Positions 14,001-29,000 of a DNA stretch of 64,000 nt are shown here, one piece after another. Position 1 is the first letter of the stretch, and each line of letters opens with the position of its first letter. Made by a program: the position numbers. Source of the stretch: Escherichia coli (GTDB taxonomy: Bacteria > Pseudomonadota > Gammaproteobacteria > Enterobacterales > Enterobacteriaceae); the NCBI RefSeq assembly GCF_003991155.1, contig NZ_CP031295.1; one strand, 5' to 3'.

Positions 14001-17000
14001 GCCCGGCTTTCGGGTAACGCCCTGGTCCCGCTGGTTTCGGCTTTGTGCTTCAGGTGATCAAGGATCTGCTTGATCACTATAGGGTCTTCAATGCAGGCGA
14101 TGACTTTCATGGCGCCGCCGCAGCCGCTGCAGGTCTCGATGTCGATATTGAAAACACGCTTGAGCCGTTGCGCCCATGTCATCGACGCTCGCCGTTGTGC
14201 TGGTGTTGCCGGTTCATCAGCCACCCTGACCTTGTTGCCCCTGCCCCGTTTTGCCGGCGTGACCAACGCCCGGTGCCGACTGTTGGGTGCGAACACCCCG
14301 TGGAAGCGGGTTAGGTTGACTCTGGGCTTCGGTACCAGGGCGGCCAGCCTTGCAATGAAATCCAATGGTTCGAAAATGACGTGCGTGGTGCCGTCCCGGT
14401 ACGGCGTCTTGAGCTGGTAGCGCACGTTGCCGCCTCGTGTTAACGACAGCCGCTTCTCGGATACCGCCGGGCGGCTGATGTACCGGCACAGCCGTTCGAG
14501 CTTCTTGCGTTCATCGGCCCTGGCCGCCACGCCGGCGTGCAGGCTGGACCCGGCTACCTTGCCAATCCCGTCACCGAACGGATCACCACTGGTCGGCAGA
14601 GTTTGCAAAGTGAACACCTTTCGCCCCGCCTGTGAACCGACAGCGATACGGTAAGTGATCGAGTGCCCCAGCAGGGGTGTCATCGGGTCGTCATCCACCG
14701 CATCCGAGGCCAGATAGCTGTTTTCGACATCCCGTTCCAGCAGGCCTTGCCGTTCCAGATAGCGACCCACCCGGTGGGCGATGGTGTGCGTCAGCGGCAC
14801 TGTTGCAAATAACCACGAATGGTAAGCTGAAGACTGTTTTAGCTAAAGGTGCAGCATATGAATCCTTTCCATGGTCGGCATTTTCAGGGCGAAATCATTC
14901 TTTGGGCTGTGCGCTGGTATTGTAAATATGGCATTAGCTATCGTGAACTGCAGGAAATGCTGGCCGAACGGGGTGTGAATGTTGATCACACGACTATTTA
15001 CCGTTGGGTTCAACGTTATGCTCCTGAAATAGAAAAACGTTTACGCTGGTATTGGCGTAATCCTACAGATCTGAGCTCGTGGCATATTGATGAAACCTAT
15101 GTAAAAGTGAATGGACGATGGTCTTATCTGTATCGTGCAGTCGATCAACGTGGCGATACCATTGATTTTTATCTTTCTTCTAGACGTAATACCAAATCAG
15201 CATATTGTTTTCTTGGAAAAATTTTAAATAATGTGAAGAAGTGGCAAATTCCACAAGTGATCAACACGGATAAAGCACCCACATATGGACGTGCTTTATC
15301 ACGGTTAAAACGGGAAGGTAAATGTCCACCAGACCTTGAGCACAGGCAGATTAAGTATAAAAATAACGTGATTGAATGTGATCATGGCAAGCTAAAGCGG
15401 ATCATCAGGGCCACATTAGGATTCAAATCTATGAAGACGGCTTATGCCACAATTAAAGGTATTGAAGTCATGCGTGCACTACGTAAAGGACAAGCATCGT
15501 CATTTTATTATGGTCAGCCTCAGGGTGAAGTGTGTCTAATCAACAGGGTTTTCGGTCTCTAAGTACTTTTTAAAGGGAACATCATCGACTCAAATCTCTA
15601 TTTGCAACAGTGCCAAAAAAACCAACTTCAAGTTGGTTTTTCTTTTTTAATCATCAGTGGCGACCTTAACACCATATCCAATTAAACCTGCAAGGCTAGC
15701 ATAGGCTATTTTGGCATAAATCGAACCCCACCAGACCGTAATTTTACTGGCACCAAATTCCCGAACCGTTTGCCCCATAAAATTAGTGGTTTCATAGAAA
15801 TTTTTAGCAGAATAACCTAACGCAATATGATCAAGGACAGGGAATAAACTAAAAGCTAAACCTACTGCTGCTGCGGGGAAAGTAAACTCTCTTGATAGAC
15901 CGAATTTTCCAGTAATAAATACAAGCGATACCACGATAATTAATCTAATGATAGTCCATAGCATCACTGTGAAAGGCAAGTTAAAGATGCCTGCTCCCTG
16001 CCACGCAAGACCGCAAACAACTAGGGGTCGTCTCAGAAAACGGAAAATAAAGCACGCTAAGCCGGTTGCAGAGGCCGTAGCGGCCTGAACTTCCCCGCGC
16101 CGATCTTGGCGCTGCTGCGCCATAGGTAATCACCGGTCAGGTTGATGTGCTCCCAGCCGAGTGGCGACAGGTACTGCAATAGCGAGTCATCGACGGCATG
16201 ACCATTGCCGCGCAACGCATGCGCCGCACGCTCCAGGTAGACCGTGTTCCACAGCACGATGGCCGCCGTCACCAGGTTGAGGCCGCTGGCCCGGTAGCGC
16301 TGCTGCTCGAAACTGCGGTCACGGATTTCACCAAGGCGGTTGAAGAACACGGCACGGGCCAGCGCATTGCGCGCCTCGCCCTTGTTCAGCCCGGCATGCA
16401 CGCGGCGGCGTAGCTCGACGCTTTGCAGCCAGTCGAGGATGAACAGCGTGCGCTCGATGCGGCCCAACTCGCGCAGCGCGACGGCCAAGCCGTTCTGGCG
16501 CGGGTAGCTGCCGAGTTTCCTGAGCATCAGCGAGGCCGTCACCGTGCCCTGCTTGATCGAGGTGGCCAGCCGCAGGATTTCGTCCCAATGGGCGCGGACG
16601 TGCTTGATGTTGAGCGTGCCGCCGATCATCGGCTTGAGCGCGTCATAGGCGGCATCGCCCTTCGGGATGTAGAGCTTGGTGTCGCCCAGGTCGCGGATGC
16701 GCGGCGCGAAGCGGAAGCCCAAGAGGTGCATCAGGGCGAAGACGTGATCGGTGAAGCCCGCCGTGTCGGTGTAGTGCTCCTCGATCCGCAGGTCGGATTC
16801 GTGGTACAGCAGGCCGTCGAGCACGTAGGTTGAGTCGCGCAGGCCGACATTGACCACCTTGGTGTGGAATGGCGCGTATTGGTCGGAGATGTGGGTGTAG
16901 AAAGTCCGTCCTGGGCTGCTGCCATATTTTGGGTTGATGTGCCCCGTGCTCTTTGCCTTGCTAGCGGTTCGGAAATTCTGTCCGTCCGATGATGATGTGG

Positions 17001-26000: not shown

Positions 26001-29000
26001 GCGCACATTGATCGGGCTGGCATCTAACAGTTCATTCAAGCCGACGCCGCTTCGCGGCGCGGCTTAATTCAGGTGTTAGTCGGACGCCTACGGCGCCGAG
26101 GAAAAAAGAAACCAAACCATTCTTGCTGCCAAAGAGAAAAACCCCTTACGGTGGCGTACTGGGAAAGTGCGTATCTACGACGCCTTGCCGGTCTCAATGT
26201 CATGCCGTCCTCTTTCGAAGGCTGCTTGATGCAAACCTCTCAAAAATCTGGCATAAACTATCTTGACATATTCCGATTGAACACCTTCCGAATATCAGCG
26301 GCTATCAGCGGGATCTCATCTTTTTTCGTGACGTAGGAGTGGGCATTCTGCTGCAGATGAAACTGGCAGCGTTGCCACAGAATTCCAGGGAAGACAGCAT
26401 CGATTGCCGCGCGCAGTCCTGAGTGGTCATCACTGGTGATCATTCGCAGGCCGTGCATCCCTCGTCGTACGAGACCCTCGAGAAAGGAACGCCAGTTTAC
26501 CTCTGCCTCACTGTTCGCGACTTCGGCGTCAAGAATATGCCGATTCCCGCTGTAATCAACGCCAATAGCCACTAGAAGCGCCTGCTTGACCACATGGGAA
26601 CCGACGCGAACCGATTCATAGGTCGCATCAAGTACCAAGTATTGAATCTGTCCGACAGGCTGCGCCTTCCAAGACGTAATCTCTTCATCGAGCTCCTTTG
26701 CCAGCCTGCTGACCTGGGACGAGCTGACTTCGGTGCCACAAAGAATTTCGACGATATCCGAGACCCTGCGGGTACTTACTCCTTTGACATACATTTCGGC
26801 GATGGCGAGCTTGAGAGCACGCTCACTGCGCATGCCTTTCTCGATGCAGCTGGGATAAAACTCCATCCCGCGAACTTGTGGTACTTTCAAGAGGACTTTC
26901 CCGGTCGCAAGATTGAATATTGGATTATTTGGATTTACCAACAAACACTACTATTTAGCTACGAAAACTCAAGAGAAGTACACAAAACCTTTTGGAAGTG
27001 ATGGAAGTTTAAGTCCTCTTGATTATAGTGTAGGTATTGGAACAGGTTTAGAATTAGGACATTTCCAGTTTATGTTTGGCTATGATTACCCTCTTAGTAA
27101 CAGTTCGAAAGATCCAAGAGCCGATAAAATGAGATTGTATTAATCTCATTTTATCGGCTCTGCGTCTTTGCGTCTGGCTCTGTAATCACAGTTACTTTGA
27201 ACTGCTTTATTTCAATTAAATTTTCTTGTCTGCATTTCGGACAATAGAGGGGGAATTTTTTTAATTCAGTATCTTCCCTTATCTTTAATCGTGTTTTATT
27301 TCCACATACAGGACACAATATTCACTTGTAGTTTATAATAACTATCTCCTCCTTTACACTTTAATTCAAATCTTTATTAAAGAATATTTCATCTTATTTA
27401 ACAAGAAACCATATTTATATAACAACATAAAATACACTAAGTTATTTTATTGAACATATATCGTACTTTATCTATCCGACTATTTGGACGACGGGGCTGG
27501 CAAACAGGTTCACCGGTAGTAACATGGTACCCTTTTAACTCTGTTAAACAAACACTACGTCCATTTGTAAAAAAAGTTAAATCATTGCGATAATCTTGAA
27601 TACATCGAGCAGGAATTTCTCCAATAATAATGACCTCATTATTTTTCAGTTGAGTATTTACGATATTTGCACAATATTTGGGAGCATCGTTATATGCCCG
27701 TGAAAGATATTCCTGTGGTGCATAAACTTTAAAACTAAGATATGGCTCTAACAATTCTGTTCCAGCTTTTCTAAAGGCTTGCTCCAGTACAATAGGAGTA
27801 AGCATCCGAAAATCTGCTGGAGTACTAACAGGGCTATAGTATAAACCGTACTTAAAACAGATTTTACAATCCGTCACATTCCAACCATATAATCCTTGTT
27901 CGCAACCATAGCGTATCCCTTCCATAACTGCATTTTGAAATGATTGATTTAAGTATCCAAGAGAAACCGAGCTCTCATACTGCATTCCACTTCCCAACGG
28001 AAGCGGTGATACAGATAAACCAATGGAAGCCCAGAAAGGATTTGGCGGCACTTCGATGTGAATGGTATATTCTGCATTTTTTAACGGTCTCTCCATATAA
28101 ATGACTGTAGGCTCTTTTAGTTCTATCTCCACATGATACTTTTCTTGCAACAGTGCACTAATCACTTCCATTTGTACTTTCCCTAAGAAAGAAAGTATAA
28201 TTTCATGTGTCGTAGAATCCACGTAATATCGTAGAAGCGGATCACTATCTGAGATTTCCAAAAGGGCATCAAGCAACATTTCCCTTTGTTGAGGTTTGCT
28301 CGGTTCAACAGTCGTTTGCAGCAGAGGGAGGGGATTTTCAATTCTCTCTCTCTGTGGCAATAGCTTTGTATCTCCAAGAACACTATTTAACTTCAAAAAC
28401 TCATTCTGCAAAATAACAATTTCCCCGGAATAAGCCTTATCAATTTTACATAATTCACCATTTATTGAAGTATACATTTCTGTAATTTTTATTTTTTCCT
28501 TTTCCGATATTCTAACCGAATCTCGCAAATGCAGTACGCCACTATAAAGACGTATATATGCAAGACGCTGTCTTTTTTCCGAATACTCAATTTTGAAAAC
28601 TTTTCCGCAAAGTTCAGACTGACCTCGATGTGTTGATGAATAAAATTTATTCGTAATCACTTCTATAAGGTTATCAATCCCTATATTGTTTTTTGCACTT
28701 CCGTGATAAACAGGGAACAGGGAACAATTATGAAATCTTATGCTTTCCTCTTGTTCGAGTTCTAATGCTTCCAATAATTTCCCAGACGTATATTTCTCCA
28801 AAAGGTAATCATTTCCTTCTATTACCATATCCCATTGTTCAGATTCGGTAAAGTTCATTACACGCATATTAGGATGCAGTTCTACCTTCTGTTTGATTAC
28901 AATTTCCGCAGAAAGTTTCTCTTTAATATCCTGATAAACCGTTGATAAATCAATTCCATTTTGGTCAATCTTATTGATAAAAAAGATTGTGGGAATACCT

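Follow-up and report, generated by a model that had tools for sequence, protein, structure and literature searches.

Tn21 is named as a residence of sul3-type integrons in the part of PMC9319951 that cites Moran et al. 2016. A module combining an integron with tet(M) has been described as Tn6942 in pS13-3 (CP047092): it is flanked by the insertion sequence (IS) IS26 and contains tet(M) together with intI1, aadA1, cmlA1, aadA2, and dfrA12, and its circular form has been found by reverse PCR (PMC8193513). A fragment of pTA7 with the layout 'IS26-ctp-lp-tet(M)-IS406tnp-ctp-aadA1-cmlA1-aadA2-dfrA12-IntI1' is called Tn6942-like (PMC11539080). The IS26-flanked tet(M) composites Tn6539 and Tn6709 contain a Δorf13-leader-tet(M) core abutting an IS6-family element, with Tn1000 (gamma-delta) DNA downstream of tet(M) (PMC6340991, PMC7347964). 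Here, we report an analysis of a related region in a 64,000-nucleotide stretch of Escherichia coli DNA (contig NZ_CP031295.1 of assembly GCF_003991155.1), referred to below as the window, with an emphasis on the point at which a sul3-type integron borne by Tn21 meets tet(M).

With a probability of about 0.92, we consider this region to be the left arm of a Tn21 derivative with a sul3-type integron, bluntly joined to a piece of a Tn916-family element that is truncated by IS26 on its far side. The module is already published and widely disseminated as Tn6942 or Tn6942-like, and the window holds a variant, not Tn6942 itself. The contribution of our analysis consists of useful corrections, namely the breakpoint at 27116/27117, the identity of the IS256-family piece as a fixed internal remnant, and the deletion variant of tnpA; there is no new biology.

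The match to Tn6942 is close. Between pS13-3 and window positions 19674-31025, identity is 99.98% over 11.35 kb, and the order shared with Tn6942 and with the Tn6942-like fragment of pTA7 is IS26-Δorf13-leader-tet(M)-orf6-sul3 conserved segment (sul3-CS) remnant with IS256-family fragment-qacH-aadA1-cmlA1-aadA2-gcuF-dfrA12-intI1-tnpM. The left ends differ. That of Tn6942 consists of TnAs1-type tnpA/tnpR genes, which are about 78% identical to those of the window, followed by IS26, whereas in the window the tnpA (lacking 15 bp) and tnpR genes of Tn21 extend to the terminal inverted repeat (IR) IRtnp, beyond which lie Acinetobacter-type DNA and IS1006. Elsewhere in the window (4068-5620), a 3' fragment of a TnAs1-type Tn3-family tnpA abuts the IS26 copy at 5621. 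Its 100% identity to the left-end tnpA of Tn6942 in pS13-3 suggests that one arrangement is connected to the other by rearrangement, either homologous or mediated by IS26.

The initial annotation had the cassette array newly ending in an IS440-type transposase fragment, at about 26890-26910, with unrelated AT-rich DNA and tet(M) beyond it and with neither sul3 nor the class 1 3'-conserved segment (3'-CS; qacEΔ1-sul1). Much of this description stands. An IS256-family open reading frame (ORF) occupies 26258-26890, tet(M) is present in a Tn916-derived fragment that starts at 27117, and neither the 3'-CS of R100 nor sul3 of pST45-1 has a match anywhere in the window. The end of the array, in contrast, had to be moved: collinearity with the sul3-CS runs on to 27116, 226 bp further, so that the supposedly unrelated AT-rich DNA after 26890 is sul3-CS up to that position, the same as in sul3-positive integrons.

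Two sul3-positive plasmids, pST45-1 and pBY63-1, served as references for this part of the module. In both, qacL is followed by the IS256-family coding sequence (CDS), an ORF of 91 amino acids (aa), then sul3 on the opposite strand, and GrpB and SDR genes; still further on are mef(B)Δ, which was observed in pBY63-1, and IS26. In pBY63-1, the Tn21 mer arm still follows. Between 22252 and 27116, the window and pST45-1 are collinear; homology to sul3 integrons then stops, at a distance of 74 bp from the 3' end of sul3, as marked by its stop codon in the reference. The IS256-family CDS encodes the same protein, WP_020802982.1, in pST45-1 and pBY63-1. It covers positions 72-283 of the 379 positions of Pfam Transposase_mut and, since both termini of the transposase are missing, cannot be an active IS; papers on Tn6942-type elements name it 'IS406 tnp', not IS440. 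By ORF listing and composition, a GC-rich block at 16.0-26.9 kb gives way to AT-rich DNA. Because the same DNA is found in sul3-positive integrons, this drop in GC at about 26900 is a normal feature of the sul3-CS and not a breakpoint. Compared with sul3 integrons in Tn21 (pCERC3 type; pST45-1 and pBY63-1), everything up to 27116 is thus shared, including the Tn21 context, the cassettes, qacH, the IS256-family remnant, and the AT-rich flank, whereas sul3, GrpB, SDR, mef(B)Δ, IS26, and the mer arm are replaced from 27117 onward by the Tn916 fragment. An apparent internal deletion of 500 bp, derived from two-piece matches, was rejected as a spurious join between a 57-bp match to the aadA1 attC and the main match.

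A three-way comparison places the breakpoint between the sul3-CS and Tn916 at 27116/27117. The join is blunt, with a 1-nucleotide overlap (a shared A): the sul3-CS reads ...AAGATCCA/GACCTAAG, Tn916 reads ...ACGGAA/AGAGCCGAT, and the window reads ...AAGATCCA/AGAGCCGAT. A 541-bp probe across the join divides accordingly, with 26900-27116 matched by sul3-type plasmids and 27116-27440 by Tn916-type elements of Clostridium and Enterococcus, and the whole probe is covered in 164 PLSDB records. The foot of a perfect hairpin in the Tn916 orf9/orf6 intergenic region coincides exactly with the junction. On the other side, the 91-aa ORF of the sul3-CS, which starts at 26913, retains its first 68 codons and is fused into a 76-aa ORF (26913-27143). 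This AT-rich ORF beside sul3 (26913-27116; 13402-13677 in pST45-1) has a weak, sub-threshold match to the C-terminal part of PF13568 (E = 5e-4), an outer-membrane beta-barrel family, and may be a remnant of the original host genome of sul3.

Illegitimate recombination is the best reading of this junction because int/xis, the ends of Tn916, and an attC are all missing from the Tn916 piece. Such an event would have removed sul3, mef(B), the remainder of the integron, and the Tn21 mer arm. The prospect that the junction is an assembly artefact and that sul3 or a 3'-CS really follows, for which the initial annotation had allowed, has virtually no chance of being correct: all that favors it is an abrupt change of GC near 26900-27100, and it is excluded by the 164 independently sequenced, complete PLSDB plasmids of several genera that span the identical junction, which is also described in PMC8193513 and PMC11539080. 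A cut within IS440 at about 26890-26910, possibly through activity of IS440 and followed by unrelated AT-rich DNA, is very improbable. The IS256-family ORF does end near 26890-26944, where GC drops, but the same ORF end and the next 226 bp are found in sul3-positive integrons, and the fragment is devoid of the transposase termini.

We give just as little credence to a site-specific route for tet(M), either through IntI1 acting on an attC cassette or through insertion by the Tn916 integrase into the AT-rich DNA flanking sul3. What speaks for it is the preference of Tn916 for AT-rich targets and the proximity of an integrase gene. However, the junction falls between orf9 and orf6, far from both Tn916 ends, int and xis are missing, and the last attC core site is at 26075, with none at 27116. 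Finally, the left junction could have arisen by an adjacent deletion caused by IS26 or another IS that was lost later. This is unlikely, even though IS26 bounds the opposite side of the Tn916 fragment and such regions are generally shaped by IS26 (PMC9319951, PMC6340991), given that no IS sequence or IR remnant is present at 27116/27117 and that the IS stays at the breakpoint after deletions by IS26.

Several observations count against our reading of the region as a blunt fusion within a Tn6942-like module. The mechanism at the junction is deduced from anatomy alone, and neither an intermediate nor the reciprocal product was found. The left end, with Tn21 tnpA/tnpR and IS1006 as opposed to TnAs1-type genes and IS26, is not that of the named Tn6942. 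None of the three IS26 copies in the window is surrounded by matching 8-bp target duplications, and they therefore give no sign of a simple transposition of this copy. The features of the module and its surroundings are compiled in Table 1.

Table 1. Features of the module and associated IS26 copies (positions in the window)
Feature	Position	Strand	Remarks
IS26 copy	5621-6440	+	
IS1006 (IS6 family), left neighbor of the module	14796-15614	+	14-bp IRs GGCACTGTTGCAAA at 14796 and 15614; annotation in identical plasmid
Small Acinetobacter-type membrane-protein gene, 3' part, interrupted by Tn21	15615-16023	-	
Tn21 IRtnp, 38 bp	16024-16061	+	identical to R100 Tn21 end
tnpA, 983 aa (R100, 988)	16057-19008	-	WP_015344976.1
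tnpR	19011-19571	-	protein identical to R100 Tn21 TnpR
res and tnpM (urf2 remnant), ending TCCAT at In2 insertion point	19572-20047	-	comparison with R100
IRi of class 1 integron	20048-20072	+	exact match, sole copy in window
intI1, P32 variant	20250-21263	-	
Pc promoter PcW-TGN-10	21148-21176	+	-35 TGGACA 21148-21153; TGG 21168-21170; -10 TAAGCT 21171-21176; 17-nucleotide spacer
dfrA12 cassette	21400-21983	+	annotation of identical plasmid; core sites
gcuF cassette	21984-22303	+	annotation of identical plasmid; core sites
aadA2 cassette	22304-23159	+	annotation of identical plasmid; core sites
cmlA1 cassette	23160-24708	+	annotation of identical plasmid; core sites
aadA1 cassette	24709-25564	+	annotation of identical plasmid; core sites
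qacH/qacL cassette	25565-26075	+	annotation of identical plasmid; core sites
sul3-CS remnant, first 1,041 bp	26076-27116	+	collinear with pST45-1, pBY63-1
IS256-family ('IS440'/'IS406') fragment, 633-bp ORF	26258-26890	-	annotation, Pfam
Tn916-derived fragment, about 3.1 kb	27117-30201	-	97.2% identical to C. tetani Tn916 copy
Perfect hairpin, 20-bp stem, Tn916 orf9/orf6 intergenic	27117-27161	+	dG -24 kcal/mol, z -8.6
orf6, Cys-rich KTR	27151-27318	-	annotation, Pfam
tet(M)	27437-29356	-	annotation
tet(M) leader peptide	29372-29488	-	annotation
Δorf13, TcpC domain	29733-30201	-	annotation, Pfam
IS26 copy, right boundary of the module, cutting orf13	30202-31021	-	
IS26 copy	36040-36859	-	

The Tn21 arm was compared with Tn21 of R100/NR1, which carries In2. 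Over the transposition module and the 5'-conserved segment (5'-CS) of the integron (16022-21411), identity to R100 is 99.56%, and IRtnp, tnpA, tnpR, res, tnpM, the integron insertion point, and the 5'-CS are all shared. The integron occupies the In2 site in urf2/tnpM, where TCCAT precedes IRi and the alignment with R100 is unbroken across IRi; the tnpM/res stretch differs from R100 by a single-nucleotide polymorphism, at 19705 in tnpM. The gene for the transposase, in contrast, contains a 15-bp in-frame deletion at 18158/18159, located between 9-bp direct repeats CGGTGGCCA and resulting in the loss of five amino acids, as well as an L245P substitution at 18275. The 983-aa TnpA variant is common to the plasmids that are identical over this region. 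Further differences from R100/NR1 are a Pc of the PcW-TGN-10 type instead of that of In2, the absence of an active P2, another cassette array, and the lack of the 3'-CS, tni, IS1326/IS1353, mer, and IRmer.

Searches of the window for the other end of the transposon and of the integron were negative. No second 38-bp Tn21 IR occurs in it with up to three mismatches, so that terminal IRs are present at one end only; IRt and IRmer were not found in the window, nor was a tni module with IRt; and the mer arm of R100 (positions 92-4758) has no match anywhere in the window, nor do its tni, IS1326/IS1353, and qacEΔ1-sul1 regions. The initial annotation spoke of a Tn21 with an intact transposition module carrying the array. 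All of the listed components (IRtnp, tnpA, tnpR, res, tnpM, and IRi) are indeed there, and the integron is Tn21-borne and in the In2 position, but what remains is the left arm alone, with a tnpA deletion variant. Judging from the sequence, the element is best called a Tn21-derivative left arm, and 'intact' overstates the state of tnpA.

The class 1 5'-CS is complete, with intI1, attI1, Pc, and IRi, and the cassette order dfrA12-gcuF-aadA2-cmlA1-aadA1-qacH given previously agrees with the annotation of an identical plasmid. G/TT core sites mark the cassette borders at 21399, 21983, 22303, 23159, 24708, 25564, and 26075. The Pc promoter, earlier described as weak-type with a TGN extended -10, does have the form TGGACA-N17-TAAGCT with TGG directly upstream of the -10 hexamer. 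A C-to-G change relative to R100 at 21169 creates the extended -10 and, on the other strand, the R32P substitution in IntI1, and P2 is without the GGG insertion that activates it, which is a difference from R100. Jové and colleagues are said to have shown in 2010 that PcW-TGN-10 is intermediate in strength and is paired with the less active IntI1 P32. The cassettes are transcribed from this promoter, presumably at that intermediate strength. The cmlA1 cassette retains a short leader ORF (MSTSKNADK), which we take to have a role in attenuation; cmlA1 and tet(M) both keep their own leader-peptide regions, which probably retain a regulatory function.

The tet(M) side of the junction corresponds to positions 6001-9086 of the C. 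tetani Tn916 reference, from orf6 to part of orf13. Neither int/xis, the conjugation module, nor the ends of Tn916 were found in this fragment, and the truncation of orf13 is due to the IS26 copy at 30202. The Δorf13-leader-tet(M) core abutting an IS6-family element is shared with Tn6539 and Tn6709, whereas downstream of tet(M) the window has the sul3-CS remnant and the integron in place of Tn1000 DNA. In at least one other plasmid context, the break is inside orf6, at probe position 368 (about 27267).

On its left side, Tn21 is inserted approximately after codon 20 of a small membrane-protein gene, the 3' part of which is 98.5% identical to the uninterrupted gene of the A. pittii plasmid CP033533 (reference segment 2438-2779). 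The 5 bp beside IRtnp are AACTA (TAGTT in the orientation of the gene). The window lacks the upstream half of this gene, which occurs in only 18 PLSDB records, nine of them Acinetobacter plasmids and the other nine from Providencia, Proteus, or Leclercia; in NZ_CP096314, the one record that was cross-checked, the two halves of the gene adjoin. A mer-side junction or 5-bp duplication was not found among the 18 records, which were not inspected singly. ISAba1 and a DUF3363 gene are also located near 14796-16023. With IS1006 and the Acinetobacter-type gene, these neighbors indicate that the island is partly of Acinetobacter-plasmid origin.

A second integron integrase gene, not of class 1, is represented by its 3' part at the very start of the window (1-745, + strand). 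The encoded protein is 46% identical to IntI1, passes the model of the integron-integrase subfamily, and falls below the IntI1 equivalog cutoff. Plasmid pIncH1 (NZ_CP068510) is collinear with window positions 1-16023 over its reference segment 5394-21416, and directly upstream of the second integrase (segment 4880-6138 was compared) it contains an inverted copy of 26074-31021. The fusion there is exactly at the core of the qacH attC, G/TTAGTC (…GACTAAC/AATTT…), and leads to the presumed attI side of the second integrase. This layout corresponds to the published Tn7124-type arrangement (PMC11539080). The tail comprising tet(M) and the sul3-CS could have moved from one integron platform to another through integrase action at the qacH attC (attI x attC recombination), a tentative proposal that we regard as possible rather than probable. 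A second, inverted copy of the block of sul3-CS remnant, tet(M), and IS26 may be present just upstream of the window.

The module is widely distributed. Many complete plasmids, from E. coli, Shigella, and Salmonella, contain the interval 16024-26890 at 100% identity, and positions 8024-31022 are 99.99% identical to an annotated matching plasmid. The stretch from qacL to IS26 is spanned in 142 PLSDB records, and 68 records contain at least 80% of the 16.2-kb module from IS1006 to IS26 unbroken, many at 100% identity; the hosts of this module are E. coli, Shigella, and Salmonella, and the sources include pigs, poultry, humans, and wastewater. Many plasmids of the IncF and IncHI2 types have the version seen in the window, with Tn21 tnpA/tnpR and IS1006, at 100% identity.

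Here, the plasmid backbone is IncF-like, and the IS26-bounded island that contains the module also includes sul2 (8300-9115) and floR. Loss of sul3 costs no phenotype because sul2 covers sulfonamide resistance in the same island. Two 1,067-bp stretches, 9445-10511 and 13729-14795, match the same ISVsa3 (ISCR2) segments of the reference plasmid at 99.9%; one ISVsa3 copy is complete (ORF 9680-11173) and the other truncated (ORF 13964-14800), and they bracket floR-lysR and a relaxase-like DUF3363 fragment. The backbone outside the island encodes RclA, a reactive chlorine resistance oxidoreductase, and UmuC (34591-35943 and 40726-41997), and farther on it contains genes of the F-type leading region with 92-96% identity to R100.

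Among the routes of mobility, transposition of Tn21, tni functions, and excision of Tn916 are excluded because the needed ends or genes are missing. Movement would instead proceed via the flanking copies of IS26 and other IS6-family elements, via homologous recombination, and via conjugation of the IncF plasmid. The occurrence of three IS26 copies without matching duplications fits a history of repeated rearrangement, either IS26-mediated or homologous.

If the tentative attI x attC route of transfer is true, a multi-kilobase non-cassette segment with a gene from Gram-positive bacteria has been moved by integrase recombination. The block itself functions as a unit of co-selected genes and links seven resistance determinants, directed against trimethoprim, streptomycin/spectinomycin (two genes), chloramphenicol, quaternary ammonium compounds, and, via tet(M), tetracycline, and sul2 and floR stand alongside it in the same island. 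Its relevance for surveillance lies in its residence on conjugative IncF and IncHI2 plasmids that move among livestock, people, and wastewater.

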